Source: Alistipes senegalensis (GTDB taxonomy: Bacteria > Bacillota > Clostridia > Oscillospirales > Ruminococcaceae). Taken from it: a stretch of DNA of 64,000 nucleotides. Positions 4,323 to 64,000 of the stretch are shown piece after piece. Where the stretch lies: assembly GCA_023665275.1 (NCBI GenBank), contig JAMPEF010000001.1, forward strand, positions 40,924 through 104,923, given 5' to 3'. Position 1 is the stretch's first letter. Each line of letters begins with the position of its first letter. A model generated the notes under the pieces. It had not been told where the DNA came from and made no database searches. It was given only the letters and a program-made list of their open reading frames with translations. The translations under genes and the position numbers were made by a program.

Positions 4323-5510
4323 ATGAACCTTAATGATACCCCGTCCGGTGAAAGAGTTCATATTGGTTTTTTCGGAAAAAGAAACGTCGGAAAATCAAGT
4401 CTTGTCAATGCCGTGACAGGTCAGGAACTTTCTGTAGTATCTGATATAAAAGGTACTACTACAGACCCCGTATCAAAAGCTATGGAATTACTGCCACTCG
4501 GTGCGGTTGTGATTACTGATACCGCTGGTTATGACGATTCCGGAAAACTCGGTGAAATGCGTGTCCGGAAAACAAGACAGATTCTTAACAAAACTGATAT
4601 AGCTGTACTCGTCGTGGACAGCACAACAGGTATTTCCGATTCCGACAATGAACTTATTGAACTATTTAAAAATAAAAATATTCCGTATCTAATCGCCTAC
4701 AATAAATCCGATATTAAAAATGTTCCACGTGGAACAAATGAAATTTCCGTCAGTGCTGTGAATAAACATAACATTCATGAACTGAAAGAAAAAATAGCAA
4801 AACTTTATATTTCTGAAAATAAAAAATTTATCGTCAGAGATTTGATAAATCCGGAAGATGTTATTATACTTGTCACTCCGATAGACGCCGCCGCACCTAA
4901 AGGTCGTTTAATTCTGCCACAACAACAGACTATCCGTGATATTCTTGACTCCGATGCTATGGCTATCGTAACAAAAGAATTTCAGTTAGCTAAAACTCTT
5001 GAAAAATTCCCCACACCGAAAATGGTCATAACAGATAGTCAGGTATTCGGTTACGTCAGCAATATAGTTCCGGAAAATATCCCGCTTACATCGTTTTCCA
5101 TTCTGATGGCTCGTTACAAAGGATTCCTTGAAACAGCCGTAAAAGGTGCGTCGTCTATCCGGAATCTATGTGACGGTGATAAAGTTCTTATCTCTGAAGG
5201 CTGTACGCATCACAGGCAATGCGGTGACATCGGCAGTATTAAACTACCTGCTCTTCTGAAAAAATTTACAGGAAAAATTTTAAATATAGAATTATCCTCC
5301 GGAAGAGATTTTCCTGAAGATTTATCGGAATATAAATTAATTATCCATTGCGGTGGCTGTATGCTTAATCAACGTGAAGTGTCTTTCCGTATGAAATCTG
5401 CTACTGACCAGAACATACCATTTACAAATTACGGAATTGCTATAGCTCTTATGAACGGCATTTTAAAAAGAAGTATTGAAATTTTTCCCGATATGGTGAA
5501 TCTGATATGA
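4323..5510 (+). CDS. hydF: [FeFe]-hydrogenase H-cluster maturation GTPase HydF
   Basis: GFFGKRNVGKSSLVNAVTG P-loop, DTAG, and NKSD GTPase motifs. About 395 aa with a Cys-containing C-terminal domain (CTHHRQCGD ... HCGGC) typical of HydF. Contains an intragenic parS-like palindrome at 4721-4736. Confidence 0.8.
   Translation: MNLNDTPSGERVHIGFFGKRNVGKSSLVNAVTGQELSVVSDIKGTTTDPVSKAMELLPLGAVVITDTAGYDDSGKLGEMRVRKTRQILNKTDIAVLVVDSTTGISDSDNELIELFKNKNIPYLIAYNKSDIKNVPRGTNEISVSAVNKHNIHELKEKIAKLYISENKKFIVRDLINPEDVIILVTPIDAAAPKGRLILPQQQTIRDILDSDAMAIVTKEFQLAKTLEKFPTPKMVITDSQVFGYVSNIVPENIPLTSFSILMARYKGFLETAVKGASSIRNLCDGDKVLISEGCTHHRQCGDIGSIKLPALLKKFTGKILNIELSSGRDFPEDLSEYKLIIHCGGCMLNQREVSFRMKSATDQNIPFTNYGIAIALMNGILKRSIEIFPDMVNLI
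4721..4736. promoter_or_regulatory. Intragenic parS-like perfect palindrome TGTTCCACGTGGAACA inside hydF (encodes NVPRGT)
   Basis: Exact 16-mer identical to the array repeat core. Flanks AA..AA give 18/20 of the 20-mer AATGTTCCACGTGGAACATT. Confidence 0.5.
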
Positions 5511-6414: not shown

Positions 6415-9036
6415 ATGGGTCTTACAGAAAAAGAAGCATCGGCAAGGCTTAAGGAAGACGGCAAAAACGTCCTTGACGGCGGAAAAAAAACTAATCCGGT
6501 GGCAATATTCTTTAATCAGTTCAAGGACGTTATGGTTATGATTTTACTGGGTGCTACTGTCATATCAGTTCTTCTTGGTGAAATCTCCGACGCTGTGACT
6601 ATAATTCTTATAGTTCTGCTTAACTCTATACTCGGATTTATTCAGGAATACAGAACGGAACATACTTTAGAGGCTCTTAAATCAATGACTTCTCCTACAG
6701 CTAAATGTTACCGTGATGGAGTTCTTAAGGAAATTGACGCCTCGGAACTCGTCGTCGATGATGTGATAGAAGTTGAGGCAGGCGACAGAATACCTGCCGA
6801 CTGTGTTATATTGAAGTCTTTCGGATTTTTTGCAGATGAAGCTATGCTTACCGGAGAATCGGAGGCTGTCGCAAAAATAGCAGGTCTTACAAATGATAAC
6901 GATAATTCTCTGAACAAGGATAATATTGTTTATTGTGGAACATCTGCTACTAAAGGCGTATGTCGTGCAAGGGTAATCGCTACCGGAAAACGTACTCAAA
7001 TGGGCAGAATCTCTGAAATGCTGACCGATATTGACAAGGAAATGACACCTCTGCAAAAACGTCTTGCAGAACTCGGAAAAGTTGTCGCCGTAATATGTCT
7101 CGTAGTATGCGTTGCTGTTTTCGTCGCCGGCGTTCTGCGTGGTGAAGATGTTTTTGAAATGCTTATGACAGGCATTACCATAGCAATAGCTGCTATTCCT
7201 GAAGGTCTTCCGGCAACTGTTACTATTGCACTTGCTCTAGCTGTAAATCGTATGCTGAAACAAAAAGCTCTTGTGAATAAACTTCACAGTGTAGAAACTC
7301 TTGGTTGCGCATCGGTGATATGCTCCGACAAAACAGGTACTATAACTGAAAATAAAATGACTGTTACTGAAATAAGTACGATTGGAGAGAGTTATTATTT
7401 CAGTGGTATGGGCTATCGCATAAATGGAGGTCTTACAAAAGGCAAGGAAAATATCTCGGTAAATCCACAAAATGAAAAATCACTTATGGAAGCGTTAAGG
7501 TGCGGTGTGATATGCTCGACTGCTACAATAAGTACGCTGAAACAAACTAAAAGTCGCAGTCGTGGAAATCTTACCGGAAAAGGTGAATGGCAAGTAACCG
7601 GTGACCCTACAGAAATAGCTTTACTTATCGCCGCCGCAAAAGCTGGTATAACTAAAGAAGCTCTTGAAATGAATTTCCGCAAACTTGATGAATATCCCTT
7701 TGACAGCGAAACACGTTTTATGGCTGTACATTGTTCTGTAAACTCCGAAAAAAGAATTTATTTCAAGGGTGCAGAAGAAGTTATCGTACCACGTTGTACA
7801 CAGTATATGGACGAATCGGGGGAAATAAAAACTTTAACTCCGAAAATACTCCGTGAAATCTCTGAAAAGGTAATAGAAATGTCCGACAAGGCCTTAAGAG
7901 TTCTTGCACTGGCTTACTGCATATCTGATACCTTAGACCCACAAAAAACTAATCTTGTATTTCTTGGACTTTCCGGCATGATTGACCCACCTCGTGAAGA
8001 GGCTAAAACCGCTATACGAAAATGTTCCAATGCCTCAATAAAAACAGTAATGATTACCGGCGACCACATAAATACAGCTGTGGCAGTCGCAAAAAAAGCT
8101 GGTCTCCTTAAAGGCGGTAAGGCTATGACCGGTGCTGAACTTGACCGCCTGACCGATACGGAACTTGACAGGGAAATACATAAATATACTGTCTTTGCAA
8201 GAGTAGAACCAGTTCATAAATTAAGAATCGTAAGAAGTTTTAAACGTCGTGGGGAAATTGTCACAATGACCGGCGACGGTGTAAATGACGCTCCGGCTAT
8301 AAAAGAAGCTGACGTCGGTGTGGCTATGGGAGTTACCGGTACAGACGTTACAAAACAAGCCGCTGACGTTATACTCCTTGATGACAATTTAGCAACTCTT
8401 GTAAATGCTGTAGAACAGGGTCGATGTGTTTACTCAAATATAAGAAAGTTTGTCAGGTATTTATTATCATGTAATATAGGTGAAGTCCTTACAATGTTTT
8501 TAGGAATTTTAATGGGTATGCCTATTATATTACTTCCGGTACAAATACTTCTTGTAAATCTTGTAACAGATGGTCTGCCAGCTATTGCACTTGGTCTTGA
8601 ACCTCCTGAAGATGATATAATGACAAAACCACCACGAAAATCTACAGAAGGTTTCTTCTCAGATGGTCTTATGGGAAAAATTATTTTCCGTGGTGTATTT
8701 ATAGGACTTTCAACGCTTGCATCATTTGCAGTAACATTGCGTACAGGCGGAACGATAGAGGCCGGACGTACAGCAGCTTTGATTACTCTTGTAATGTCTC
8801 AACTTATACACGTTTTTGAATGCAAATCTGAAACAAAATCAATTTTTAAAATAAAATTTTTCAATAATGTTAAACTTGTACTCGCTGTGCTTGTATCTCT
8901 CGGAGCGCTGGCTGTAGCTGTAATGTTTCCGCCATTACAGGCTGTCTTTGAAACTGTAACACTTACTTCACATCAACTTCTTATTGCATTGGGATTCAGT
9001 GTCGCAATTCCTGTTATAAGCGCAATTTTTCAATAA
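6415..9036 (+). CDS. Calcium-translocating P-type ATPase (P2A/P2B type)
   Basis: 873 aa. CSDKTGTITEN phosphorylation motif, TGDGVNDAPAIKEADVG, TGES, PEGLPA motifs. About 10 TM segments. Confidence 0.85.
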   Translation: MGLTEKEASARLKEDGKNVLDGGKKTNPVAIFFNQFKDVMVMILLGATVISVLLGEISDAVTIILIVLLNSILGFIQEYRTEHTLEALKSMTSPTAKCYRDGVLKEIDASELVVDDVIEVEAGDRIPADCVILKSFGFFADEAMLTGESEAVAKIAGLTNDNDNSLNKDNIVYCGTSATKGVCRARVIATGKRTQMGRISEMLTDIDKEMTPLQKRLAELGKVVAVICLVVCVAVFVAGVLRGEDVFEMLMTGITIAIAAIPEGLPATVTIALALAVNRMLKQKALVNKLHSVETLGCASVICSDKTGTITENKMTVTEISTIGESYYFSGMGYRINGGLTKGKENISVNPQNEKSLMEALRCGVICSTATISTLKQTKSRSRGNLTGKGEWQVTGDPTEIALLIAAAKAGITKEALEMNFRKLDEYPFDSETRFMAVHCSVNSEKRIYFKGAEEVIVPRCTQYMDESGEIKTLTPKILREISEKVIEMSDKALRVLALAYCISDTLDPQKTNLVFLGLSGMIDPPREEAKTAIRKCSNASIKTVMITGDHINTAVAVAKKAGLLKGGKAMTGAELDRLTDTELDREIHKYTVFARVEPVHKLRIVRSFKRRGEIVTMTGDGVNDAPAIKEADVGVAMGVTGTDVTKQAADVILLDDNLATLVNAVEQGRCVYSNIRKFVRYLLSCNIGEVLTMFLGILMGMPIILLPVQILLVNLVTDGLPAIALGLEPPEDDIMTKPPRKSTEGFFSDGLMGKIIFRGVFIGLSTLASFAVTLRTGGTIEAGRTAALITLVMSQLIHVFECKSETKSIFKIKFFNNVKLVLAVLVSLGALAVAVMFPPLQAVFETVTLTSHQLLIALGFSVAIPVISAIFQ

Positions 9037-9049
9037 TATAATTTCTGTG

Positions 9050-9300
9050 TAAATTGTTCCATGTGGAACATTTTGTGTTTGTCGGTGCGGATTGTTCCAC
9101 GTGGAACATTTTGTGTTCGTTGGTGCGGATTGTTCCACGTGGAACATTTTGTGTTTGTCGGTGAGGATTGTTCCACGTGGAACATTTTATGTTTGTCGGT
9201 GAGGATTGTTCCACGTGGGACATTTTGTGTTTGTCGGTGCGGATTGTTCTACGTGGAACATTTTGTGTTCGTTGGTGCGGATTGTTCCACGTGGAACATT
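9050..9300. repeat. Tandem array 1: 7 copies of parS-like palindrome TGTTCCACGTGGAACA, period about 38 bp
   Basis: 16-mers start at 9056, 9094, 9132, 9170, 9208, 9246, 9284. Four are perfect. Three carry single central changes: CATGTG, CACGTGGG, TACGTG. Spacer GTGTTYGTYGGTGMGGAT is homogeneous. ORF-track ORFs 9014..9349 and 9061..9324 are repeat artefacts. Confidence 0.9.
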
Positions 9301-9354
9301 TTAAAATTTCCAGTAATATTATAAAATCTCCGTGAAATAATATTATCAAGCAAA

Positions 9355-9374
9355 TTGTTCCACGTGGAACATTA
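9355..9374. promoter_or_regulatory. Solitary parS-like palindrome immediately upstream of the spoVAD RBS
   Basis: ATTGTTCCACGTGGAACATT at 9355-9374. The spoVAD GGGAGG RBS starts 3 nt later. Confidence 0.55.
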
Positions 9375-9387
9375 AGGGAGGTTTTTT

Positions 9388-10398
9388 ATGGCTGAATACA
9401 TTTCACAGGGAGTTTTCATAATTTCAGATACAGTAAAAATTGAAAGTTATGCATCGGTAGTAGGTTCTAAAGAGGGTGAAGGAAACTTAGGAAAGTATTT
9501 CGACGAAATAATAGAAGACAGTCATTTTGGTAAAAGTTCGTGGGAAAAAGCAGAGAGCCGTTTTCAGCTTGAGGCTGTAAGCCTTGCGATACGCAAAGCA
9601 GGAATAACCAAAGAAGATATTGATATTATATGTTCCGGAGACTTGATTAATCAGTGTATCGGTTCGACTTATGGCTTGCGTGAACTGGAGATACCATTTC
9701 TAGGACTATACGGAGCTTGCTCTACTATGGCTGAAGGATTGCTTATATCATCACTGCTTACAGATAATAAAGTGGCAAAACGTGCTGTAGCAGTTACATC
9801 ATCGCATTTTTCGACAGCTGAAAGACAATTCAGATTTCCATTGTCATACGGCGGACAGCGTACACCTACTGCACAATGGACTTGCACAGCATCGGGTGCG
9901 GTGGTACTTTCCGACACCAACGGCACTATAAAAGTAGTAGGTGGCTGTATCGGAAGAATTACCGATATGGGAATAAATGATATAAATAATATGGGTAGTG
10001 CTATGGCTCCTGCTGCCGCTGGAACTATTCAGCGTTACCTTAATGCAACCGGAACTAATCCAGAAGATTATGACTTTATAGTTACCGGAGATTTAGGCAT
10101 GGTAGGCAGCAGACTACTGATTGAATTTTTACAGAAACAAGATATTGATATTTCTGTACAGCATCAGGATTGTGGTTGTCTGATTTTCGACAGCGAAAAA
10201 CAGGATACACATTGTGGTGGTTCGGGTTGTGGTTGTAGTGCAAGTGTCTTATGTGGATATTTTCTGCCTATGCTTGAAAACGGCACAGCTAAAAACATAC
10301 TGTTTATTGCAACAGGTGCATTGATGTCGCCCATGTCGCTACAGCAGGGTGAATCAATTCCGACAATTGCACATCTTGTACATTTAAGAAAGGACTGA
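9388..10398 (+). CDS. spoVAD: Stage V sporulation protein AD
   Basis: 336 aa. Collinear similarity to B. subtilis SpoVAD (thiolase-like fold): GACSTM, SSHFSTAERQFRFP, GSAMAPAAA, and the C-terminal SIPTIAH. Confidence 0.9.
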   Translation: MAEYISQGVFIISDTVKIESYASVVGSKEGEGNLGKYFDEIIEDSHFGKSSWEKAESRFQLEAVSLAIRKAGITKEDIDIICSGDLINQCIGSTYGLRELEIPFLGLYGACSTMAEGLLISSLLTDNKVAKRAVAVTSSHFSTAERQFRFPLSYGGQRTPTAQWTCTASGAVVLSDTNGTIKVVGGCIGRITDMGINDINNMGSAMAPAAAGTIQRYLNATGTNPEDYDFIVTGDLGMVGSRLLIEFLQKQDIDISVQHQDCGCLIFDSEKQDTHCGGSGCGCSASVLCGYFLPMLENGTAKNILFIATGALMSPMSLQQGESIPTIAHLVHLRKD

Positions 10399-10403
10399 AA
10401 AAA

Positions 10404-10769
10404 ATGATATTATGGGATTTGATAAAAGCTTTTCTGATAGGTGGTATCATATGTGCTATAGGACAGCTTTTAATTGACTATACAAAACTAACTCCGGCAA
10501 GAATACTTACAAGTTTTGTTGTTGCCGGAGTAGCGCTTTCCGCACTTGGAATATACAAACCACTTGTTGAATTTGCCGGAGCAGGTGCGTCCGTACCGCT
10601 TACGGGTTTCGGAAATCTTTTAGCGGAAGGTGTCCGAAAAGCCATTGACCGTGATGGTTTTTTAGGTGTATTTACCGGAGGACTTACGTCAGCGGCAGCC
10701 GGCGTGACTGTCGCATTACTTGCCGGACTTTCAGCGTCGGCGGTTTTCAAACAGAAAGACAAGAGTTAA
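10404..10769 (+). CDS. spoVAE: Stage V sporulation protein AE (SpoVAEb-type)
   Basis: 121 aa. IGGIICAIGQLLIDYTKLTPA and FAGAGASVPLTGFGN match the SpoVAC/SpoVAEb family. Length and N-terminus are closest to SpoVAEb. Confidence 0.75.
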   Translation: MILWDLIKAFLIGGIICAIGQLLIDYTKLTPARILTSFVVAGVALSALGIYKPLVEFAGAGASVPLTGFGNLLAEGVRKAIDRDGFLGVFTGGLTSAAAGVTVALLAGLSASAVFKQKDKS

Positions 10770-10770
10770 T

Positions 10771-10810
10771 TAAAAAAAGGCATTTCCGGTGCGGAAGTGC
10801 CTTCAATTTA
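10771..10810. terminator. Bidirectional hairpin terminator between spoVAE and the convergent lipoprotein gene
   Basis: aaggcatttccg-gtg-cggaagtgcctt, flanked by an A-run on one side and a T-rich run on the other. Confidence 0.5.
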
Positions 10811-11443
10811 TTTATTTATTTTTTCTGTCCAGTCAGTGTAAAGATGATTATTTCTTACAAGACTAAGTGCAGAAAGTGCATTTTCGTCATACGTCTTGTA
10901 TGATATACACTGATTTGCTCCGGTATTCATAATCCTGAACCAATTTCTTTTATCGTCTGGAATACAACAACTGTAATCATAATAAATGCTTTCAATAACA
11001 TCGGGTTCACACCCATCATCACGCAGACGGTCATAATCTTTGGCATCATAATTTATTCCGGAAATATATTCAGATAACTTTTGTGTATCTTCTGGAGAAA
11101 AATTTCCGATATTTTCGAGATGATCAGCAATTTCCCACGCAGACTCGTCATGACCGGAAAATTTCTTCACAAAATCATAATTATCGTCCCTGTAATTACT
11201 GTCCATAGTCCAGACAGTGCCGTCACTAAGTACCACAAAATAATACATAATATCTGTATCTGTATATTTTTCTTCCTGATAATTATGAAGAATAGTCACA
11301 AAAAACAGAACTTTATCCATATTACTTTCCGCTGAAATTTCCGGAGTGATTTCTTTTGTCGTATTTCCACAGGCTGTAAACATCATCATAACAAAAATCA
11401 GGAAAATATTTAATATTTTTCTGAACTTACACGCCATAGACAT
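10808..11443 (-). CDS. Putative lipoprotein (unknown function)
   Basis: N-terminal KFRK, hydrophobic run, FTAC lipobox. 211 aa. Overlaps the upstream ORF by about 34 nt, suggesting an operon. Confidence 0.55.
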   Translation of the reverse strand: MSMACKFRKILNIFLIFVMMMFTACGNTTKEITPEISAESNMDKVLFFVTILHNYQEEKYTDTDIMYYFVVLSDGTVWTMDSNYRDDNYDFVKKFSGHDESAWEIADHLENIGNFSPEDTQKLSEYISGINYDAKDYDRLRDDGCEPDVIESIYYDYSCCIPDDKRNWFRIMNTGANQCISYKTYDENALSALSLVRNNHLYTDWTEKINK

Positions 11444-11901
11444 TCACCGTCTTCACAGTTTACAACAACCCAGTCAAATTTTTTTGACATAATATAGAAA
11501 TCTGTTACAAAATATATTTCTGAAAAAGCCATCAATATTTCAGAAATTTCGCCCTCATATACCCATCCGTCTGCAACAATACCGAAATATTTTTTATTGT
11601 CTGAATAATCCGGAATAAGACTTTTTATTGAATTAATATCAGTGTCATCATAGTGTAAGCGTATTGTATCAGATGTCTTAAGATTTTTGCGAAAATTAAG
11701 CCATGCATATGACAAATCAATTTTTTCAGGTTCAAAATACCTTATATTCTTATCATACTCAAAAAATGTATAGTAAAATTTACGTATAATATTTTCATAT
11801 GAAAGTTTTGATACTTCATGAAACTTTGAACGGTCAATATTTTCTTCTTTTATAGTATTTTCAATTTCATTTCTTACTCTGTAACGTTCCTTTTGTGTCA
11901 T
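11410..11901 (-). CDS. Hypothetical cytoplasmic protein (start uncertain; the ORF track begins at a TTG at 11976)
   Basis: Long ORF with no recognisable motifs. Candidate ATG starts at 11961, 11949, 11910, 11901, none with a strong RBS. Confidence 0.4.
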   Translation of the reverse strand: MTQKERYRVRNEIENTIKEENIDRSKFHEVSKLSYENIIRKFYYTFFEYDKNIRYFEPEKIDLSYAWLNFRKNLKTSDTIRLHYDDTDINSIKSLIPDYSDNKKYFGIVADGWVYEGEISEILMAFSEIYFVTDFYIMSKKFDWVVVNCEDGECLWRVSSEKY

Positions 11902-12098
11902 ATGTAACCCCATTTGATTTAGTTTCCTTATTGTAAAATTTTCTATCATTATAACATACATAAAATCAGAAGTCAAGAAAAAATAAATATGTTATCTGTA
12001 TTTTAATATCAATATTGTACTATTACAACAGTTTATCCGATATAAATAATCATTATTTTATAATTTCCTACAAAAATAAATTTTTTTCGGTTTTTCTA

Positions 12099-12127
12099 TT
12101 GACTTTTTCAGAAACACGTGCTATAAT
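12099..12127 (+). promoter_or_regulatory. Consensus-like sigma-A promoter for the tRNA-Met-tRNA-Glu operon (TTGACT-17-TATAAT)
   Basis: TTGACT at 12099-12104, 17-nt spacer, TATAAT at 12122-12127. About 40 nt upstream of the tRNA 5' end. Confidence 0.55.
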
Positions 12128-12167
12128 AATAAAGTCGTAAGGCAGTAATAGCAACGACGTCAAATAT

Positions 12168-12244
12168 GGCGGCATAGCTCAGTTGGCTAGAGTACTCGGT
12201 TCATACCCGATTGGTCGTTGGTTCAAATCCTACTGCCGCTACCA
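12168..12244 (+). tRNA. tRNA-Met (anticodon CAT); could alternatively be tRNA-Ile2 (lysidine) or initiator
   Basis: Cloverleaf folded by hand: acceptor GGCGGCA/TGCCGCT, D-arm GCTCAGTTGGCTAGAGT, anticodon loop TTCATAC, T-arm GGTTCAAATCC, encoded CCA. Confidence 0.75.
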
Positions 12245-12252
12245 TTTAACAA

Positions 12253-12324
12253 GGCCCGTTGGTCAAGCGGTTAAGACATCGCCCTTTCACGGCGGAATCA
12301 TGGGTTCGATTCCCGTACGGGTCA
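12253..12324 (+). tRNA. tRNA-Glu (anticodon TTC)
   Basis: GGCCCGTTGGTCAAGCGGTTAAGACATCGCCCTTTCACGGCGG...GGGTTCGATTCCCGTACGGGTCA. Anticodon loop CTTTCAC. Typical tRNA-Glu sequence. ORF-track ORFs 12183..12371 and the 5' part of 12259..12840 are artefacts over these tRNAs. Confidence 0.85.
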
Positions 12325-12332
12325 CTTCAAAA

Positions 12333-13940: not shown

Positions 13941-14288
13941 AATGTTCCACGTGGAACATTTTCAGGTTTTATACAAGCTGATTGTTCCACGTGGAACATT
14001 TTTCAAGTTTCGTACAAGCTGATTGTTCTACGTGGAACATTTTTCAAGTTTCGTACAGACCGATTGTTCCATGTGGAACATTTTTCAAGTTTCATACAGA
14101 CTGATTGTTCCACGTGGAACATTTTTCAAGTTTCGTACAGACCAATTGTTCCATGTGGAACATTTTTCAAGTTTCATACAGACTGATTGTTCCACGTGGA
14201 ACATTTTTCAAGTTTCGTACAGACTGATTGTTCCGCGTGGAACATTTTTCAAGTTTCGTACAAACCGATTGTTCCATGTGGAACATTT
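13941..14288. repeat. Tandem array 2: 9 copies of parS-like palindrome, period 41 bp
   Basis: 16-mers start at 13943, 13983, 14024, 14065, 14106, 14147, 14188, 14229, 14270. Four are perfect. The others have single central changes (TACGTG, CATGTG x3, CGCGTG). Spacer TTTTCAAGTTTCRTACAGACYGAT. ORF 14023..14367 is an artefact. Confidence 0.9.
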
Positions 14289-24012: not shown

Positions 24013-24864
24013 TTATTCATAGTCCTTTGCGAGTTTTTCAGCAATTGTTTTCAAATCGTCCTTATCATAAAATTCAAGGACGAGCGAACCTTTTTCTCCG
24101 CTATGTTTCACCTTGACTTTACGTCCGAGACGCATATTTAATGCAATTTCCATTTCAGCAAAATAATTGTCGGCCATATCCCGTTCATGTTCTTTCTGAA
24201 ATGCATTGTCTCTTTTATGTATTTCATTTTCAAGCTGACGTACAGTCATTTTACCGTCGGAAGCCCTTTCAGCAAGTTCAGTAAGAAATTTTACATCTTC
24301 AATCACTGCAAGCAGTGCTTTTGCATGACCAATCGACAGACTGCCTGTTTCAAGCATATATAGCACCGTATCCGGAAGTGAAAGTATTCTTACAGCATTT
24401 GCAATTGCAGACCTTGAACGCCCTACCATTTTTGCGATTTGTTCCTGTGTCATTCCGTATTTTTCAATAAGGTCACAGTAACCGTTAGCTTCTTCAACCG
24501 GATTAAGATTCTCTCTTTGAAGATTTTCTATAACTGCAATCTGCATAGCCTGTATATCGGAAAGTTCACGTATATTAACCGGTACTTCATCAAGACCGAG
24601 CATTCTTGCGGCTCTCCAGCGTCTTTCGCCGGCGACAATCTGATAACCACCAATCGACAAAGGTCTGACAAGTATCGGCTGTAACATACCATGTTCACGG
24701 ATAGACGCCGCAAGAGACGTTATTGCCTCTTCACTGAAAACTTTTCGTGGTTGGTCACGATTAGGTTCTATTTCAGAAGTCCTTAATGTTTTTTTTACTT
24801 GTATTTCGCTTGTATTGTCACTGAAAAGACTATCAAGCCCAGCACCAAGCCCACCTATAGCCAT
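24013..24864 (-). CDS. spo0J: Chromosome partitioning protein ParB/Spo0J
   Basis: 283 aa. GERRWRAA ParB box. HTH MTQEQIAKMVGRSRSAIAN. Genomic context soj-spo0J. Confidence 0.9.
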   Translation of the reverse strand: MAIGGLGAGLDSLFSDNTSEIQVKKTLRTSEIEPNRDQPRKVFSEEAITSLAASIREHGMLQPILVRPLSIGGYQIVAGERRWRAARMLGLDEVPVNIRELSDIQAMQIAVIENLQRENLNPVEEANGYCDLIEKYGMTQEQIAKMVGRSRSAIANAVRILSLPDTVLYMLETGSLSIGHAKALLAVIEDVKFLTELAERASDGKMTVRQLENEIHKRDNAFQKEHERDMADNYFAEMEIALNMRLGRKVKVKHSGEKGSLVLEFYDKDDLKTIAEKLAKDYE

Positions 24865-24884: not shown

Positions 24885-25694
24885 TTATTTCTTGTTGAAT
24901 GAAAAAATTCCCCTGAGTTTTTTCTTCGGGAGTTCGAGAGGCTCACCGAGAAGTTCATGTCCAAGAAGTTCATAAGCCTCCGCACCCTTTGAAGACTTGT
25001 CATAATACATAACAGGCTTGCCATGACTTGGTGCTTCTGAAAGACGTACATTTCTTGGTATCTTTGTTTTGAAAATTTTATCAGGGAAATACTTTTCCAC
25101 TTCTGCAACTACATCATTGGCGACATTAAGTCTTCCATCAAACATAGTGAAAACAATTCCCTCAATATTAAGTACGGGATTATAATTCGTCTTAACAATC
25201 TTTATCGTATTGACAAGCTGTGAAAGTCCTTCCAGTGCGAAAAACTCTGCAAGCATCGGGACTATCACCGTATCACATGCAACGAGTGCATTTATTGTGA
25301 TAAGACCAAGTGCCGGTGGACAGTCAATAAATATATAATCATAGTCTTCACGACAAGTAAGCGTCTGCATTTTTAGACGTTTCATTCTGTTCTCAAAGTT
25401 TATAAGTTCTATTTCGCAACCGGCAAGAGATTCTGTAGCCGGAACTATTGATACATTGCTGAAATCAGTTCCTATAACAGCATCCTGAATCCTTATTTTA
25501 CCAGTCAAGACATCATATGTCGAGGCACTGGCGGACTTTTTCTTAACCCCAAAAGCAGTAGTAGTATTGCCTTGCGGGTCTGAATCAATACAAAGAACCT
25601 TAAATCCCCTTGAACCAAGATAAGCAGCAAGATTTACGGCTGTAGTAGATTTTCCGACGCCGCCTTTTTGATTTGCCACTGCAATTATTTTGCC
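24885..25694 (-). CDS. soj: Chromosome partitioning ATPase ParA/Soj
   Basis: MGKIIAVANQKGGVGKSTT deviant Walker A. Start set at MGKII (25694). The ORF-track start at 25715 is over-extended. Confidence 0.9.
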   Translation of the reverse strand, partial: GKIIAVANQKGGVGKSTTAVNLAAYLGSRGFKVLCIDSDPQGNTTTAFGVKKKSASASTYDVLTGKIRIQDAVIGTDFSNVSIVPATESLAGCEIELINFENRMKRLKMQTLTCREDYDYIFIDCPPALGLITINALVACDTVIVPMLAEFFALEGLSQLVNTIKIVKTNYNPVLNIEGIVFTMFDGRLNVANDVVAEVEKYFPDKIFKTKIPRNVRLSEAPSHGKPVMYYDKSSKGAEAYELLGHELLGEPLELPKKKLRGIFSFNKK

Positions 25695-25788
25695 CATGGT
25701 ATTCATTCCTTTCATTTTTTATATTTAATATTATAGCACCTTTTAAACGCTTTGTAAATAGTAGTTGTACAATTTTTATACTTATCCG

Positions 25789-26270
25789 AATGTTCCACGT
25801 GGAACATTTTCATGGCACAGACTTTTTATTCTTAATTGTTCCACGTGGAACATTTTTCATGCACAGACTTTTTATTCTTAATTGTTCCACGTGGAACATT
25901 TTCATGGCACAGACTTTTTATTCTTAATTGTTCCACGTGGAACATTTTCATGGCACAGACTTTTTATTCTTAATTGTTCCACGTGGAACATTTTTCATGA
26001 CACAGACTTTTTATTTCTGATTGTTCCACGTGGAACATTTTTCATGCACAGACTTTTTATTCTTAATTGTTCCACGTGGAACATTTTCATGGCACAGACT
26101 TTTTATTCTTAATTGTTCCACGTGGAACATTTTCATGGCACAGACTTTTTATTCTTAATTGTTCCACGTGGAACATTTTTCATGACACAGACTTTTTATT
26201 TCTGATTGTTCCACGTGGAACATTTTCATGACACAGACTTTTTATTCTTAATTGTTCCACGTGGAACATT
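25789..26270. repeat. Tandem array 3: 11 perfect copies of parS-like palindrome, period about 46 bp, filling the soj-noc intergenic region
   Basis: 16-mers start at 25791, 25837, 25883, 25928, 25974, 26021, 26067, 26113, 26159, 26206, 26252. All are exact TGTTCCACGTGGAACA. Spacer TTTTCATGRCACAGACTTTTTATTYYTRAT. ORFs 25673..25927 and 25882..26112 are artefacts. Confidence 0.9.
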
Positions 26271-26311: not shown

Positions 26312-27127
26312 TCATTTTGCTTTCTGAACAGGGATTCTAATTCGATATTCTATGTAGTCATGATGCTGAATTTTCTGTGAATCTGCCGGAATACCAGCCA
26401 ACTGCATCGTTTCCACGGTCTTATTTATGGTATTAATAAATATTTTCACATTCTGAAAAACTTTTGAACGTTTTTTATAGTTTGTCTTTTCACGTTGAGA
26501 GCCGATAAAATCCTCAATAAGTTTTTCAGTACGTTCAACATTAAGATTATCCTTGACGATTTTTTCAAGGATAACAAGTCTGTCTGGTGGACTTGCCAGT
26601 TTAAGTAAAGCTCTTGCATGACGTTCAGTAAGTCCAAACTTTCCTATTAGTTCACGTTCTTCAGGAGTAAGACGCAGAAGACGTAATTTATTGGCTATAG
26701 TACTTTGTGCCTTACCGAGTTTAGCGGCTGCATCTTCCTGTGTCAAGCCATAATATGTAATAAGTCTTTCGATAGCCGCCGCCTCGTCAAAGAAAGATAA
26801 GTCCTGACATTTAATATTTTCGACAAGCGCAATAATAGCAGAATCCCTGTCATTGACTTCATGTATGATACACGGAACTGATTTCAGCCCACATATTTCA
26901 GCAGCCTTTAGATATTTTTCACCTTTAATAAGTTCAAAAACCTCACCGCATCTTTTCACGATCAACGGCTGTAAAACACCGTTTTTCATGACTGATTCTG
27001 CAAGTACTGAAATTTCCGTATCCTGAAAATCCGGATTCGGTTTATTCTGGTCAAGAACAATCATATTTATATCAATCTCAACCACTTTACTGATGAGTTT
27101 TTCTTTTGTAAAATTTAAAAGTGCCAT
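26312..27127 (-). CDS. noc: Nucleoid occlusion protein / second ParB-family paralog
   Basis: 271 aa ParB-like. HTH LTQEDAAAKLGKAQSTIANKLRLL. Position between rsmG and soj matches noc synteny in Firmicutes. Confidence 0.7.
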   Translation of the reverse strand: MALLNFTKEKLISKVVEIDINMIVLDQNKPNPDFQDTEISVLAESVMKNGVLQPLIVKRCGEVFELIKGEKYLKAAEICGLKSVPCIIHEVNDRDSAIIALVENIKCQDLSFFDEAAAIERLITYYGLTQEDAAAKLGKAQSTIANKLRLLRLTPEERELIGKFGLTERHARALLKLASPPDRLVILEKIVKDNLNVERTEKLIEDFIGSQREKTNYKKRSKVFQNVKIFINTINKTVETMQLAGIPADSQKIQHHDYIEYRIRIPVQKAK

Positions 27128-34926: not shown

Positions 34927-35072
34927 ATTTACAGGAAAGAATTGCTTTTTTTATTGTTTCCTACCGGAACTGAATACAGGTCAGCCGGAGCGGAAAAATA
35001 TACATGAAAACTGTATTTTTTTACGTCTTACCCGGAACAGCTCCGGAAATATCATTAATACGGAGGGAAAAT

Positions 35073-36431
35073 ATGAAATCAACGGAATCATTTGAGGAAG
35101 TCTTTGAAAATGTAAAAGAATACTGCCTTGAAAATAACAAGATTCCCGCAATTGGTCTGAATACATGGATAGCCCCCTTAAGACCTGTAAGCCTTGAGGG
35201 CACAGAGGCACGTTTTAAAATTCAAACGGCGTTTCAACGTGACCTCGTAAAAGAAACTTACGGCAAAATACTTAAAGATGCTTTAAAAGTCATTCTCGGC
35301 TATGAAGTGGAAATGATTATTGATGTTGAACCAAGAAACGCACAGGCTGTTTCTATGAATTTTTATGACCCTGAAAGCAAAAATTCTGAATTTTCAAAAT
35401 ATGAATATACGTTTGATACATTCGTGGAGGGTCGTTCAAATGAATTTGCAGTAGCCTGTTGTAAATCTGTGGCAAAAAACTGCGGTGAAACGCCTGTCCC
35501 TGAATATAATCCGCTGTTTATATATGGTGCTTCAGGTATGGGAAAAACTCACCTTATAACCGCAATTTTAAATGCAGTCCGTGAAAAACACCCTGAATTT
35601 AAAATAATCTACATGACCAGTGAAAATTTTGGAAATGAATTTGTAAAGGCACTTACCGCCAAACGTATGGCGGATTTTCATGAAAAATACCGCTCAACTG
35701 ACTTATTTATTATTGAAGATATACAGTTCTTTATCGGAAAAGAACGAATGCAGGAAGAACTCTTTCATACATTCCATAAACTGCATCAGGAGTGCAAGCA
35801 GATTATAATGACATCTGATAAAGCACCGAAAGAACTGCAAAATCTTGATATACGTCTTTTGACAAGACTTGAAGGCGGTCTTATAGCTGACGTTTCCGCA
35901 CCTGACTATGAAACAAGACTCGCTATAATCAACAGAAAATCAGAACTGCTTGACCTTAAACTTTCCATAGAAGTGGCGGAATTTATAGCAAACCGTCTGA
36001 AATCCAACATAAGACAACTGGAAGGCGCTGTTATGCGCCTGAAAGCACTGAATCACTTCTCCGGAAGTCCCATAACCATATCAATGGCACAGGGAGTTAT
36101 TCGGGACGTTCTAACAAATGAACAGCCAACACCAATAACGGTTGAAAAGATAATTACGGAAGTTTCAGGGGTTTACGGCGTATCTCCGGACGATTTGCGC
36201 TCAAATAAGCGTGCGTCGCAAGTTTCAATAGCAAGAAAAGTGGCTATATATATAATCCGTGCGATAACACAAATGCCACTTGCCGCCATAGGTGAGGAAT
36301 TTGGCGGAAGAGACCACTCAACTATTGTATATTCCATAACAAGCATTACCGAATCTATGAAAAAAGACCCTAATCTTAATAATCTTGTGACAAATATAAT
36401 CAATAACATAAAAGAAAAAAGTAAACTATAG
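35073..36431 (+). CDS. dnaA: Chromosomal replication initiator protein DnaA
   Basis: AAA+ Walker A GASGMGKTHL. C-terminal DNA-binding domain VAIYIIRAITQMPLAAIGEEFGGRDHSTIVYS. Start at MKSTESF (GGAGGG RBS). The ORF-track start at 35004 is over-extended. Confidence 0.95.
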   Translation: MKSTESFEEVFENVKEYCLENNKIPAIGLNTWIAPLRPVSLEGTEARFKIQTAFQRDLVKETYGKILKDALKVILGYEVEMIIDVEPRNAQAVSMNFYDPESKNSEFSKYEYTFDTFVEGRSNEFAVACCKSVAKNCGETPVPEYNPLFIYGASGMGKTHLITAILNAVREKHPEFKIIYMTSENFGNEFVKALTAKRMADFHEKYRSTDLFIIEDIQFFIGKERMQEELFHTFHKLHQECKQIIMTSDKAPKELQNLDIRLLTRLEGGLIADVSAPDYETRLAIINRKSELLDLKLSIEVAEFIANRLKSNIRQLEGAVMRLKALNHFSGSPITISMAQGVIRDVLTNEQPTPITVEKIITEVSGVYGVSPDDLRSNKRASQVSIARKVAIYIIRAITQMPLAAIGEEFGGRDHSTIVYSITSITESMKKDPNLNNLVTNIINNIKEKSKL

Positions 36432-38525
36432 TTCGAAATATGAACACTGAAATCCTGCAAGGAAAATTTTTCACCGGAAAACAATGCATTTATTTTAATA
36501 ATATAGCAAATAATATAATATCTAATATAATATTTAGTGCTTAAACTTTTATTTAAGATATATCTTAATCTTATTTTTTAAATAATATCTTTTATAAGGT
36601 TTGTGCAAATTTACCAAATGGCATTTTTGGCAAAATCGAAAATTTCTGTTAACCATATGCAACATTTTGTAAATAAATTGTAAATAATTATAATTTTTAT
36701 TTAAGTTACAAAAAATTAATACGAATTTTTTTTGTGTACTTTTACTAAAAATTTTTGATGTTTTTATAAAAATAACCTGTTTTTACAAGCTTGTGTAAAT
36801 CTGAATAACGATTTATGCAAAAGAAAATACATAATTTTTATAGATTTATTTTTAACTATTAAACAGATATATTTTATATATTTAATATTTTTTAGGCTTA
36901 AAACAGAAATAAATCAGCAGTAATAAGTTTTAATTAATTATTTTTTGTTTATATTTATGAATTGGATATAATTTTTAATATTTAAAAAACTTGGGTATAC
37001 AATTTGACGGAAAAAATCAGCATTGGCTTCCGGAAAAAATGAAAGTTTGTTCTTAAATTTCTTTAAGAAGTTCCCATCTGGAGTGAAAAAAGTGTGAATT
37101 TGGCTTTTTTTAAAAAATATTGCTATTTTCAATAAAAAATATAACATAACTGTATTTTCCGACAGAAACCGAGAATTTCAAGCAGATTTTAAAATTCTCA
37201 GTAAATATAATAACTCTCAAATTTCCTTTAAAACTGGCATTTATTCAAGATAAATTCATATAAATATACAACAGTCTATTTATTAATAAATTATTAATTG
37301 CCGGCTTTACTCTACAGAAAAACCACAAAATTTTCTGAAAGTTCAAAAAACTTAAATAAAAAGTTTTAATTTATTTTTTTGAAATCCAGTTTTTGAAGTA
37401 AAAAAATTACAATTTTATGGAAATCCTAAAAAATTTACCTTGATTTTTTAGCTGTTTACATGGAAAAAATAATTTATTAAAACTTTAATTTAAGTAAATA
37501 ATTTTCCAATTGTTAACCATAGTTAACATATGAACAAATTATTAAGGGTTCAGATGAACCGATTTGGAATTGTTATTTATTTTAATTTTTATTTTTTATG
37601 ACTTTATTATTAAATTTTTATTTATTTTTAGTTAATTTATAAAAAATATAAATAAATTATCCCATTAAAAATCACTAAATATAGCTACAAAAAATAAGTA
37701 AATAAATATAACTTTCTTTTTATGATGATTTAGTGTTTAAATTGTGAAATTATCAATTATGAACTAAATATGTATTTTTTATGAACAATTGCCGTAACGA
37801 AAAATAGCCAAAAAATCGATATCAACTACCTCTTAAATGCCGTTTTTGTGTAATAAATCACGAAAAAACGTTACATGGCAATATGCACAAACAACTTTTG
37901 TGAAAATTAAATTTTAGGCTTAATATAGCGGTTTTTTAAGATACAATATTTTTAAAGAGTACTTTTGTTCTCTGAAAAACGTTGTTTTATAACGATTTTC
38001 GGCATAAACGAATATTCTTTAAAATTTTTAATATTTAAAAAATACCGTTCATAATTTAGACATAATCAGAATATACGTTCTGTTTTGGTCGGAAAAAGAT
38101 AAAAAATTCATGTTATCCCTCGCCTGTTTTTGCCTAAATATAGGTAAAATCAGGTAGACATTGAACGAAATAACAATATACCAAAAGTTTTCAACAAAAA
38201 GAACGTAAGTTCTCAAAATTTTGTTAGATTAATGTTTGCTTTTTGATTTTCACAGTTCCAACACAAAACATGTTTCACTATCAACAGTTTATCAACATTA
38301 ATTTTGTTGAATTATCTATACAAAATATAGCCGTAAAACAAAACTTTCAACTTTTTATTCTCACTTAATTAAGAGTACTAATTTATTATTTATTTATTAT
38401 TTACGCGCCGCTAAAAAAATTCTGAAAAACAAAAAATTTGCAATTCTTGATTTTCAGAATCAAAAAATCAAAAAAAAATTATTATCAATTGTTACCAAAT
38501 TATGAATACAGGAGGAATTTTCAAA
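36432..38525. other. About 2.1-kb ORF-free, extremely AT-rich dnaA-dnaN spacer (putative extended oriC / DNA-unwinding region)
   Basis: No ORF of 60 aa or more apart from an RBS-less 69-aa antisense ORF. Only degenerate DnaA-box-like 9-mers found by eye (TTATCAACA about 38290, TTATCCCTC about 38113). GTTAAC inverted repeat at 37511-37528. Confidence 0.4.
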
Positions 38526-61493: not shown

Positions 61494-63440
61494 TTATCTT
61501 ACTTTTTTAGCAATATCGTCAATCAGTTTCATAACTAAATCATTCTGTGACATTGAGCCTAAATCACCCTCACGTCTTGAACGTACCGAAACAGTACCGT
61601 TTTCAACTTCCTTGTCGCCGACAGTAAGCATAATCGGAAGTTTTTCCACAGTTGCGGAGCGTATCTTGTAGCCGACTTTTTCCGCTCTGTCGTCGATAGT
61701 AGCACGTATTCCGACAGCCTCAAGTTTTGCGAGTACTTCATTGCAGTATTCAAGATGTCTGTCTGCAACCGGAATAATTCTCACCTGCTCCGGAGCCAGC
61801 CACAGTGGTAATGCACCTGCATATTTTTCAATCATATAGGCAAGAGTTCTCTCATAACAACCAAGCGACGTCCTGTGTATGATATACGGACGCTTTTTAG
61901 TGCCGTCAACATCGACGTATTCCATGCCAAATTTTTCAGCAAGAAGCATATCAATCTGAATTGTAACAAGCGTATCTTCCTTGCCGTAAACGTTCTTGTA
62001 CTGAATGTCAAGTTTAGGACCATAGAAAGCCGCCTCATCAATACCTATTTCGTACTCAACACCGAGGTGGTCAAGGATTTTAGTCATAACAGCCTGTGCT
62101 TCCTCCCACTGTTCAGCAGTACCTTCATACTTGTTTTTAGGATTGGACGGGTCCCACTGTGAGAATCTGAAAGTACAGTCTTCAAGCAGTCCTACTGTTT
62201 CAAGCATCTCTTTTGCAAGCTCAAGACAATCTTTAAATTCTTTTTCCGTTTGGTCTGGACGGAGTATAATATGTCCCTCTGATATTGTAAATTGTCTTAC
62301 TCTTATAAGACCGTGCATTTCACCGGAATCTTCTTTCCGGAAAAGTGTTGAAGTTTCGCCAAGTCGCATAGGTAAATCACGGTAAGAACGCTGTCTGTTC
62401 AGGAATACCTGATACTGAAACGGACAGGTCATCGGACGGAGTGCAAAACATTCTTTAGTTTCGTCGTGTGGGTCGCCGAGAATGAACATTCCGTCAAGAT
62501 AGTGATCCCAGTGACCAGAAATTTTATATAACTCACGTTTTGCGAGATAAGGTGTTTTTGTGAGTAAATAGCCGTGTTTCTGTTCAACGTCCTCAACCCA
62601 GCGTTGCAAAGTCTGGATAACTCTTGCACCTTTCGGAAGAATAATCGGGAGTCCCTGACCGATACAATCAACAGTTGTGAAGTATTCAAGTTCACGACCA
62701 AGTTTATTATGGTCACGGAGTTTAGCTTCTTCACGCTGTTTAATGTCTGCTTCAAGTTCTGCGTTTTTAGGGTATGCAACGGCATAAACTCTTGAAAGCA
62801 TCTTATTCTTTTCCGAACCTCTCCAGTAAGCACCCGTGCATGAAAGCAGTTTGAATGCTTTGACCGGTGCGGTAGTCATAAGGTGAGGACCGGCGCATAA
62901 ATCAATAAATTCACCCTGCTGATAGAATGAAATCGGTTCACCCTTACCGGCGTGTTCTTCACAGAGTTCAACTTTATATGGTTCGTTGATTTCCTTGAGT
63001 TTAACAATAGCGTCTTCCGGTGAAAGTTCAAACTGTTCCAGTTTAAGACCTTCTTTGACGATTTTTTTCATTTCTGCCTCGATTTTTTCGAGTTCCTCTT
63101 GTGTGAACGGCTTTTCAAGGTCAAAATCATAGTAGAAGCCGTTATCAATTGCCGGACCTATAGCAAGTTTTGCGTCGGGATAAAGTCTTTTTACAGCCTG
63201 TGCAAGAATGTGAGACGCCGTATGCCAGAAAGTTTTTTTACCGTCCATGCTGTCGAAAGTACATACTTCAAAATCACAATCGCTGTCAATGATAGTTCTT
63301 AAATCCTTGACTTCACTGTTGATTTTAACACAGCAGGAGGCTTTATAAAGTCCCATACCAATGTCCTTTATAATTTCGTAAGCCGGTACGGAATTTTCAA
63401 TTTCTCTTATACTACCGTCTTTGAGAGTTAATTTAATCAT
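61494..63440 (-). CDS. thrS: Threonyl-tRNA synthetase
   Basis: 648 aa. TGS, editing, class II catalytic (HRTSLG... motifs) and anticodon-binding domains. AAGGAG RBS. Confidence 0.95.
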   Translation of the reverse strand: MIKLTLKDGSIREIENSVPAYEIIKDIGMGLYKASCCVKINSEVKDLRTIIDSDCDFEVCTFDSMDGKKTFWHTASHILAQAVKRLYPDAKLAIGPAIDNGFYYDFDLEKPFTQEELEKIEAEMKKIVKEGLKLEQFELSPEDAIVKLKEINEPYKVELCEEHAGKGEPISFYQQGEFIDLCAGPHLMTTAPVKAFKLLSCTGAYWRGSEKNKMLSRVYAVAYPKNAELEADIKQREEAKLRDHNKLGRELEYFTTVDCIGQGLPIILPKGARVIQTLQRWVEDVEQKHGYLLTKTPYLAKRELYKISGHWDHYLDGMFILGDPHDETKECFALRPMTCPFQYQVFLNRQRSYRDLPMRLGETSTLFRKEDSGEMHGLIRVRQFTISEGHIILRPDQTEKEFKDCLELAKEMLETVGLLEDCTFRFSQWDPSNPKNKYEGTAEQWEEAQAVMTKILDHLGVEYEIGIDEAAFYGPKLDIQYKNVYGKEDTLVTIQIDMLLAEKFGMEYVDVDGTKKRPYIIHRTSLGCYERTLAYMIEKYAGALPLWLAPEQVRIIPVADRHLEYCNEVLAKLEAVGIRATIDDRAEKVGYKIRSATVEKLPIMLTVGDKEVENGTVSVRSRREGDLGSMSQNDLVMKLIDDIAKKVR

Positions 63441-63455
63441 GATTTTTTTCTCCTT

Positions 63456-63833
63456 TTAGTTTAATTTTCCTGTCACTTCAATGCCGTTATCGTATCCGAG
63501 TTCCATAGAAAGCGGTACAAGATAACCGTCTGTGCTGTCCACATTGAAACATACTACAACGCCGTCTTCATCGATATCGACGTATGCGCCGGTAATCTGA
63601 ATACATTCCGCAAGAAGTTCAGCCGTACCGCTGTAGTAGCCATCATCGGTTATAATTTCGGCGATTTTTTTCTTGTTGCGGTTGAGTTTGTCAAGTTTCT
63701 GTGCTATTTCGCTGAAATTATCCATGATTTCGGATTCTTCTTCAACGTAAAAACGCACAATGACGTTACGTTCCCAAAGTTTATAGGTGATTTCAAAAGC
63801 CTCTTCCTTTTCGTTGTACTTAATCTGTCCCAT
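63456..63833 (-). CDS. Hypothetical acidic protein co-transcribed upstream of thrS
   Basis: AGGAG RBS 9 nt upstream of the ATG at 63833. 125 aa. Sits between the T-box leader and thrS. Confidence 0.5.
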   Translation of the reverse strand: MGQIKYNEKEEAFEITYKLWERNVIVRFYVEEESEIMDNFSEIAQKLDKLNRNKKKIAEIITDDGYYSGTAELLAECIQITGAYVDIDEDGVVVCFNVDSTDGYLVPLSMELGYDNGIEVTGKLN

Positions 63834-63842
63834 AAAATTCAA

Positions 63843-64000
63843 CTCCTTTTTGATAATAATAAAAGTCCCCCATACCGAAAAGGCACAAGGGACGACTAAA
63901 AAACCGTGATTCCACCCTGATTCACATAGAAAAAATAACTATGTCTCATTGTCTCTATAACGGGAGATACCGGCGTTTATTGGACGCACTCCGAGGTGGT
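63843..64000 (-). ncRNA. T-box riboswitch leader (partial, extends past window end)
   Basis: Minus-strand read: AATCAGGGTGGAATCACGG (plus 63905-63923) matches the T-box consensus AGGGTGGNACCGCG region. Followed by a terminator hairpin (gtccc...gggac + TTTT, plus 63861-63896) just upstream of the 63833 ORF. Confidence 0.5.

Follow-up and report, generated by a model that had tools for sequence, protein, structure and literature searches.

We have studied a tandem array of palindromes that lies immediately upstream of the sporulation gene spoVAD in a stretch of 64,000 nucleotides of bacterial DNA (contig JAMPEF010000001.1), referred to below as the window. The source belongs to the R. flavefaciens group of Ruminococcus; among named organisms, the best SpoVAD match (90% identity) is from an R. 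flavefaciens metagenome-assembled genome (MAG). The window is the replication-origin region of the source. We conclude, with a probability of about 0.78, that the array is a lineage-specific tandem amplification of the parS site inserted into the spacer between a Ca2+-ATPase gene and spoVAD, that it is part of an origin-proximal platform of 32 sites for the loading of ParB, and that spoVAC was not displaced by it. The principal elements are given here by their window coordinates; L numbers designate loci in other sequences.

4721-4736, no strand: solo parS in hydF (4323-5510), a perfect copy lying in frame within the coding sequence.
6415-9036, plus strand: gene for a Ca2+-type P-type ATPase, upstream of array 1; its functional end is at 9022-9036.
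9055-9298, no strand: array 1, seven parS TGTTCCACGTGGAACA with an exact 38-bp period and the 22-bp spacer TTTTGTGTTTGTCGGTGCGGAT.
9299-9355, plus strand: relic of the ancestral ATPase 3′ end and ATPase-spoVAD spacer, from alignment with L001, L002, L006 and L007.
9313-9318 and 9336-9342, plus strand: candidate forespore-type promoter, -35 GTAATA and -10 AATAATA separated by a 17-nt spacer, assigned from conservation in relatives.
9356-9371, no strand: parS copy 8, isolated and perfect, ~20 bp inserted after the candidate -10 and ahead of the Shine-Dalgarno (SD) sequence.
9376-9381, plus strand: SD sequence GGGAGG ahead of spoVAD.
9388-10398, plus strand: spoVAD (TIGR02845, 419.8 against an equivalog cutoff of 411.8).
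10404-10769, plus strand: spoVAE of the SpoVAEb type, 121 aa (TIGR02839, 137.2 against a cutoff of 131.1).
13943-14285, no strand: array 2, nine parS with a 41-bp period, between an ADP-ribosylglycohydrolase gene and feoB.
20560, 21913 and 29867, no strand: other solo parS, from the pattern search.
24013-24864, minus strand: parB, presumed reader of parS, with the box VAGERRWRAA that binds cytidine triphosphate (CTP).
24885-25715, minus strand: parA, adjacent to parB and also a presumed reader of parS.
25791-26268, no strand: array 3, eleven perfect parS with a 46/47-bp period, between a noc-like gene and parA.
26312-27127, minus strand: the noc-like ParB paralog, whose best solved-structure matches are Noc proteins.
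35004-36431, plus strand: dnaA, marking the replication origin.

Judged by its sequence, the repeated palindrome is canonical chromosomal parS. TGTTCCACGTGGAACA fits the chromosomal consensus TGTTNCACGTGNAACA, and the assignment draws further on the presence in the same window of parA and of a parB with a GERRxRA box. The encoded ParB has ParB_N, HTH_ParB and ParB_C domains, its best solved-structure matches are Spo0J/ParB proteins, and its box, which is of the GERRxRA type, was aligned to Thermus Spo0J (1vz0) with E 7.5e-53. ParB-type sites had been suspected in the original prediction, and the sequences bear this out. A pattern search of the 64 kb found 32 sites with two or fewer mismatches, where 0.01 are expected from 100 dinucleotide-preserving shuffles. 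Twenty-three are perfect and nine have a single mismatch; none has two or three. The arrays of 7, 9 and 11 copies contain 27 of the 32, and there are four solo sites besides copy 8. Every parS lies at 4.7-29.9 kb in the window, i.e., 5-30 kb to the left of dnaA (array 1 being ~26 kb from it), and the window contains none to the right of dnaA.

Within array 1 the palindromes start at 9055, 9093, 9131, 9169, 9207, 9245 and 9283 (pattern search, 0-1 mismatch), and Tandem Repeats Finder reports a repeat at 9053-9302 with period 38, 6.6 copies, 92% matches and a score of 430. This bears out the seven plus one palindromes of 38-bp period described earlier ahead of spoVAD. The last palindrome does abut the ribosome binding site, as had been stated, but the gap is 4 nt (TTAA) and not 3 nt, a trivial difference: copy 8 ends at 9371, GGGAGG occupies 9376-9381, and the spoVAD ATG is at 9388.

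Other identities for the repeats were considered and rejected. The spacers are near-identical within each array rather than unique, unlike those of a CRISPR array. A foreign origin for the array 1 spacer was discarded on finding that, within the window, it occurs only in array 1. The B. subtilis Noc-binding site (NBS) is a palindrome of the ATTTCCCGGGAAAT type, and the palindrome repeated here is TGTTCCACGTGGAACA; NBS-type sites themselves were not searched for. The array repeat matches no Pfam or Rfam family, with nothing in Rfam beyond sub-threshold hairpin noise.

The origin of the arrangement can be read from related genomes. The order hydF, DUF2809, PemK, Ca-ATPase, spoVAD, spoVAE is the same in the window and in L001, L007/L008 and L002/L003, whose SpoVAD proteins are 90%, 88% and 84% identical to that of the window, respectively. 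In these relatives only 54-56 bp separate the ATPase stop from the spoVAD start, and parS, array and spoVAC are all absent there. The relic at 9299-9355 is homologous to the ATPase end and spacer of the relatives (window AAAATTTCCAGTAATATTATAAAATCTCCGTGAAATAATAT; L001 GCAATTTTCCAGTGAATATTATAAAACCTCCGTGAAATAATAT), and the ATPase stop region is present twice, in its functional form at 9022-9036 and within the relic at ~9303-9315. It follows that the array was inserted at the end of the ATPase gene, duplicating the stop region. Alignment shows that copy 8 arose separately, ~20 bp having been inserted cleanly between AAAT and GGAGG, which is part of the SD. Since array-free relatives also have no spoVAC at this locus, its absence there predates the array. 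Array 1 had been thought to replace an expected spoVAC, or else to have inserted into or displaced the 5′ part of the operon; on the evidence of synteny we regard replacement and displacement as refuted, the relatives at 84-90% identity having the same ATPase-spoVAD-spoVAE order with neither array nor spoVAC. What stands is an insertion 5′ of the spoVAD-spoVAE pair.

The closest relative found, L006, is a public contig of 1.6 kb with 95% SpoVAD identity, and it is the only one found that shares the structure of array 1. It starts inside a parS repeat with a spacer resembling that of array 1, continues into the same relic, and then has a parS that is followed after 4 nt by CGGAGG. It ends in an extra tandem parS array after the spoVAE stop (1543-1616, period 36, spacer TTTCCGTCCAGCATTACGAT) that the window does not have; the contig breaks lie inside arrays at both ends. 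The synonymous divergence (dS) between the spoVAD genes of the window and L006 is ~1, so the shared arrangement must be old. The units are nevertheless 92% alike, which points to continuing homogenization.

The other arrays appear to have a different history. At the sites of arrays 2 and 3 relatives have two or three closely spaced parS (for array 2, two in L001 that are 40 bp apart, 17384/17424; also 2064/2092 in L004 and 3177-3241 in L234), indicating that arrays 2 and 3 are expansions of small ancestral clusters, while array 1 is a new site. The spacers of the three arrays are mutually unrelated, and thus each array was amplified in place. In array 1 the spacers of units 1 and 5 are identical, as are those of units 2 and 6, revealing a 4-unit duplication of 152 bp, and array 3 has higher-order periods of 139 and 185 bp; unequal exchange leaves patterns of just this kind. 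The flawless copies of array 3, with these periods, suggest a very recent expansion. The hydF site lies in a variable linker that reads KNVPRGTN in the window and KEIPCNEN, KEIKCNEN or KEIQCGEN in relatives. Eleven of 18 nt differ from L001 without any insertion or deletion, and the codons to either side have hardly changed, which suggests that new sites are either selected for or copied from a template.

Taken together, arrays 1-3 and the solo sites would form a platform near the origin onto which the ParB of the window is loaded. By analogy with characterized ParB proteins, each palindrome would load ParB-CTP dimers, which would then form closed clamps that slide along to the flanking DNA, and the loaded ParB would build the partition complex on which ParA and SMC act. 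The length of an array grows or shrinks by unequal recombination or slippage, in view of the two or three copies in relatives against 9-11 here and the higher-order units (152 bp; 139/185 bp). The two-gene spoVAD-spoVAE unit behind the ATPase is ancestral to the lineage, with spoVAC encoded elsewhere, and any regulatory effect on spoVAD would be a side effect that the cell tolerates.

Some observations weigh against this interpretation. Within arrays 1 and 2, mismatches amount to 3.4% in the palindrome and 5.2% in the spacer, a difference that is not significant (p = 0.39), so the arrays themselves offer no direct indication that their sites are under selection. One parS suffices for segregation in several model species (review PMC7022226), and thus there is no obvious need for 32. 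ParB binding, clamp loading and a benefit from the extra copies are steps that we infer by analogy. The promoter assignment comes from conservation in just four distinct relatives, with a -35 that is altered in both array-bearing genomes. Lastly, the place suggested for spoVAC in this genome (see below) is a hypothesis.

The arrays might instead be neutral or selfish minisatellites, created by slippage, unequal crossing-over or a drive-like spread of parS, which ParB may bind but whose extra copies bring no benefit. We consider this unlikely, while giving it real weight. The copy number varies widely among relatives (0, 2-3 or 7-11), the higher-order repeats point to recent unequal exchange, conservation is no higher in the core than in the spacer, and L006 has its additional array after spoVAE. 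However, new perfect parS copies also arise singly, one of them in frame in hydF, and this points to selection or templated copying more than to slippage alone. The architecture common to the window and L006 at dS ~1 is evidently long-lived, and all the sites are on the origin-proximal side, as those of functional centromeres would be.

The position of array 1 also bears on the expression of spoVAD. In L001, L002 and L007 the sequence TGAATA-N17-AATAATA is kept within the ~55-bp spacer, TGA being the ATPase stop and the 17 bases being variable, and the window and L006 have GTAATA-N17-AATAATA. The consensus recognized by forespore sigma-G is GHATR-N17/18-CATnHTA, and the spoVA operons of Bacillus and Clostridioides depend on sigma-G. 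The conserved motif resembles this consensus and is a candidate for such a promoter. Between the end of the seven-copy block and the candidate -35 there are ~15 bp. Transcription is predicted to start at ~9349-9352, downstream of AATAATA, and copy 8 would occupy about +5 to +20 of the leader. With seven copies upstream and copy 8 in the presumed 5′ leader, the candidate promoter would be bracketed by ParB loading sites.

An effect of ParB on spoVAD-spoVAE expression, as had been suggested, is possible by analogy. It is a larger step to suppose that ParB, at or sliding from the upstream and leader sites, represses, roadblocks or times spoVAD-spoVAE and that the arrangement was selected for this, and we find that improbable. 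The placement of the block and of copy 8, which separates the candidate -10 from the SD, would suit such a role and is kept in L006 across dS ~1. In P. aeruginosa the intergenic parS3 and parS4, which likewise lie directly upstream of genes, repress adjacent promoters (PMC5521831), and in V. cholerae ParB acts on transcription (PMC4010829). However, repression was measured in P. aeruginosa while here it is a possibility, and in B. subtilis loss of Spo0J leaves the expression of parS-adjacent genes unchanged (review PMC7022226). The same amplification is seen at unrelated genes, in arrays 2 and 3 and the solo sites, so spoVAD is not special, and the promoter on which the proposal turns is itself a prediction. 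Furthermore, spoVAD is under strong purifying selection, also in the array-bearing lineage: the ratio of nonsynonymous to synonymous divergence (dN/dS) is 0.03-0.08 in every pair, including the window and L006. Evidently the insertion did not inactivate or silence the gene to the point of decay. A role for copy 8 in RNA structure was rejected, as the SD stays unpaired when copy 8 forms its hairpin, and shuffled sequences fold just as stably (z = 0.13).

The spacer of relatives contains CCTCCG ~25-65 nt upstream of their CGGAGG SD (L001 9960-9995; L006 ~50-135), which might pair with the SD when transcription continues out of the ATPase gene; the fold is weak, and shuffled sequences do equally well.

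An extension of the amplification reading, which we offer tentatively and regard as doubtful, is that parS is actively proliferating in this Ruminococcus sub-lineage, a centromere expansion in which fresh perfect copies would appear and then grow into minisatellites like those of sopC (see below), through selection for ParB loading or through templated copying. The fresh positions that can be cited for it are the in-frame copy in hydF, the 20-bp patch in the spoVAD leader, and the array after spoVAE in L006. The bracketing of a sporulation promoter by ParB loading sites, and the coupling of spoVAD-spoVAE expression to ParB occupancy, would again be side effects.

It is very unlikely that the repeat units are stacked weak intrinsic terminators or insulators that halt ATPase read-through into spoVAD. 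A hairpin with a T-run is indeed scored in five of the seven units and in further parS copies (8800-11000 has 11 such sites, where 1.5 are expected), and the 55-bp spacer of relatives has no room for a terminator. However, the stem is only 6 bp with three G-C pairs, and TTTT also follows parS in array 3, whose flanking genes are on the opposite strand, and at solo sites. Since the T-run follows parS whatever the orientation of the genes, it is probably part of the extended palindrome AATGTTCC..GGAACATT rather than a terminator feature.

Displacement or replacement of spoVAC by the array has scarcely any probability left. The textbook order in Bacillus and Clostridioides is spoVAC-spoVAD-spoVAE, and spoVAC is indeed absent both upstream of spoVAD and from the whole window: queries with SpoVAE and with real SpoVAC proteins found no spoVAC-like open reading frame (ORF) in any frame of the 64 kb, in agreement with the original prediction. 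The SpoVAC queries were proteins annotated "stage V sporulation protein AC". By tblastn they match only the SpoVAE paralog, with E ~1e-12, in the window and in L001-L008; because they pick up this paralog, a true spoVAC would have been detected. The 121-aa ORF scores 48 bits against the SpoVAC model TIGR02838, for which the cutoff is 164, and is therefore spoVAE and not spoVAC. The interval 8990-9400 contains no spoVAC remnant in any frame.

Relatives without the array tell the same story over a wide range of SpoVAD identity. L004/5 and L234-240 (76-77%) have spoVAD-spoVAE with neither spoVAC nor array at the locus. A metagenome scan added 80 further loci with 48-75% SpoVAD identity, and none of those at 65% or above has an adjacent spoVAC, so that absence from array-free loci extends over 65-90% identity; at 61-63% there is a spoVAC 0.4-1.2 kb upstream in divergent orientation. 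An upstream flank of 1 kb or more was available for 68 loci; of these, 19 show the canonical spoVAC-spoVAD order, five a divergent spoVAC, one the order spoVAD-spoVAE-spoVAC, and 43 no upstream spoVAC. The premise that Firmicutes normally have the order spoVAC-spoVAD-spoVAE was thus too strong. Ruminococcus sp. MAGs carry annotated SpoVAC, and the prevailing order in the genus is spoVAD-spoVAE-spoVAC. The gene is downstream, divergent or orphan in the genus, and its absence upstream of spoVAD here reflects the gene order of the genus. The locus resembles the canonical spoVA operon of Bacillus, Clostridioides and C. perfringens in that spoVAD and spoVAE are adjacent, intact (both pass equivalog cutoffs) and under purifying selection; it differs in that the canonical operon has spoVAC upstream, which the window and its relatives do not (spoVAD-spoVAE-spoVAC, divergent spoVAC, or orphan spoVAC by thrS). 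In other Ruminococcus MAGs (L209-L220, L225-L233) spoVAC is downstream of spoVAE, sometimes with rpsT and gpr between them; no gpr or rpsT homolog was found in the window.

In L221-L224, which are from one species, an orphan, monocistronic spoVAC is divergent from thrS, ~400 bp past the thrS start (7651-10444). The window has a counterpart of this thrS near its right end.

61494-63440, minus strand: thrS, 82% identical to the thrS beside the orphan spoVAC in L221-L224.

The last ~160 nt of the window align with the thrS leader of L221-L224, the window being cut inside the leader. As the window stops there, and a related thrS adjoins an orphan spoVAC, the spoVAC of this genome may lie just past position 64000, beyond the thrS leader. 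Public assemblies had no record of an exact match to the SpoVAD of the window. No sample overlap was found between the thrS-spoVAC contigs L221-L224 and any spoVAD-spoVAE locus of the same genome, and Rfam gives no T-box at the right end of the window, where the leader is cut off. A 128-aa ORF with no Pfam match (63456-63842), between the thrS leader and thrS, is extra in the window relative to L221-L224. The portion of Galperin (2012) that was accessible does not list spoVAC among the genes missing from R. albus 7, which is not decisive. A paper on R. bromii sporulation and a preprint by Galperin (2022) give no spoVA detail for R. flavefaciens, a literature search joining flavefaciens with spoVA returned zero papers, and in a representative SpoVAC set the cluster names were too sparse for the choice of a Ruminococcus member.

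That the array is a misassembly, to which tandem repeats are prone, or a protein-coding repeat, ORFs of 87-111 aa being open across it on both strands, can be dismissed, as its units carry distinct variants in a higher-order pattern, its ORFs match no Pfam family, its 38-bp period is not a multiple of 3, and the independent public contig L006 has the same junctions.

The surroundings of the locus show several further features.

10777-10803: terminator-like hairpin 3′ of spoVAE.

The Ca2+-ATPase gene is linked to spoVAD-spoVAE in L001-L008, L234-240 and L225-228, either directly upstream, with PemK between, or in the same 12-kb cluster, which hints at a functional coupling with the uptake of calcium-dipicolinic acid. 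Downstream of spoVAE, at 10808-12325, is a variable island that adjoins tRNA-Met/tRNA-Glu in the window. It contains genes of DUF6756/Imm51 type in the window, L001 (11414-12950) and L007, a CBASS system (SMODS, SAVED, E2) in L002 (11535-16085), and an integrase with Mob in L003 (11421-18699). The minus strand of the window also carries mnmE, mnmG, rsmG and serS, with an rsmG/mnmG/mnmE/parAB cluster at 24-31 kb. For 2 kb after dnaA (36432-38500) there is no long ORF; this gap has AT-rich tandem repeats at 36540-36591 and 37568-37643, and is presumably oriC.

We have also asked how common such arrangements are. A census of one genome per species for three parS spaced by 16-44 bp gave at least 120 loci, and at least 120 species across many phyla have three or more tandem parS. 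Among the loci listed, the longest run is three copies in 103 and four to six in 15; the matches listed include eight copies in a Lachnospiraceae MAG (L033) and ten in a Bacilli MAG (L048), to be compared with 7, 9 and 11 in the window, and many Collinsella with a conserved parS triplet of 39-bp period. Among the 120 loci listed, each of 8 kb, 101 have origin-cluster genes and 80 a parA, parB or noc homolog. Small tandem clusters of parS beside parAB are thus common, and the window is an extreme case. In L138 and L139 an extended ORF upstream of a divergent spoVAC reads ..KMFHVKHS.., a protein-level footprint of parS (TGTTTCACGTGAAACA), which places parS beside spoVA genes in other origin-proximal relatives too.

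The sites share with chromosomal parS of Firmicutes and other bacteria, such as the ten Spo0J sites of B. subtilis, the 16-bp palindrome TGTTNCACGTGNAACA, the proximity to the origin, and a parA/parB pair with the CTP box. In model organisms parS sites are typically dispersed singly over tens of kilobases, whereas 27 of the 32 here are in three strictly periodic arrays. The nearest precedent we found in the literature is in M. xanthus, where 22 parS repeats in a 3.1-kb stretch are bound by ParB in vitro (PMC3899335). There too, many near-consensus parS (TGTTCCACGTGGAACG) occur naturally packed together close to the origin; these are, however, ~140 bp apart on average over ~3.1 kb, in contrast to the three minisatellites with 38-46-bp periods. 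The closest architecture is that of sopC in plasmid F, with twelve 43-bp direct repeats that each contain a 16-bp inverted repeat bound by SopB (PMC3177203). The two have in common direct repeats of ~40 bp, one 16-bp palindrome of the ParB family in each, and 7-12 copies. However, sopC is plasmid-borne, beside sopAB and specific for SopB, whereas the sites in the window are on a chromosome and follow the chromosomal parS consensus; array 3 alone adjoins parA, arrays 1 and 2 lying 10-16 kb from parAB. Searches of the text-searchable literature brought up no account of tandem parS arrays occurring naturally on chromosomes in this form; mentions of a "parS array" that were followed up proved to be an engineered construct, and the word "tandem" is absent from a 2020 review of chromosomal ParB.

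The interest of the locus lies in its centromere architecture, a chromosome with three periodic parS arrays in the form of plasmid F sopC, and comparison with sister genomes gives clear evidence that the gain and expansion of parS is recent relative to them. The arrays are natural test cases for how the number and spacing of sites relate to ParB-CTP clamp loading, the size of the partition complex and the recruitment of SMC, and the candidate spoVAD promoter, with parS on both sides, would offer a convenient way of reporting how ParB affects transcription in a Firmicute.

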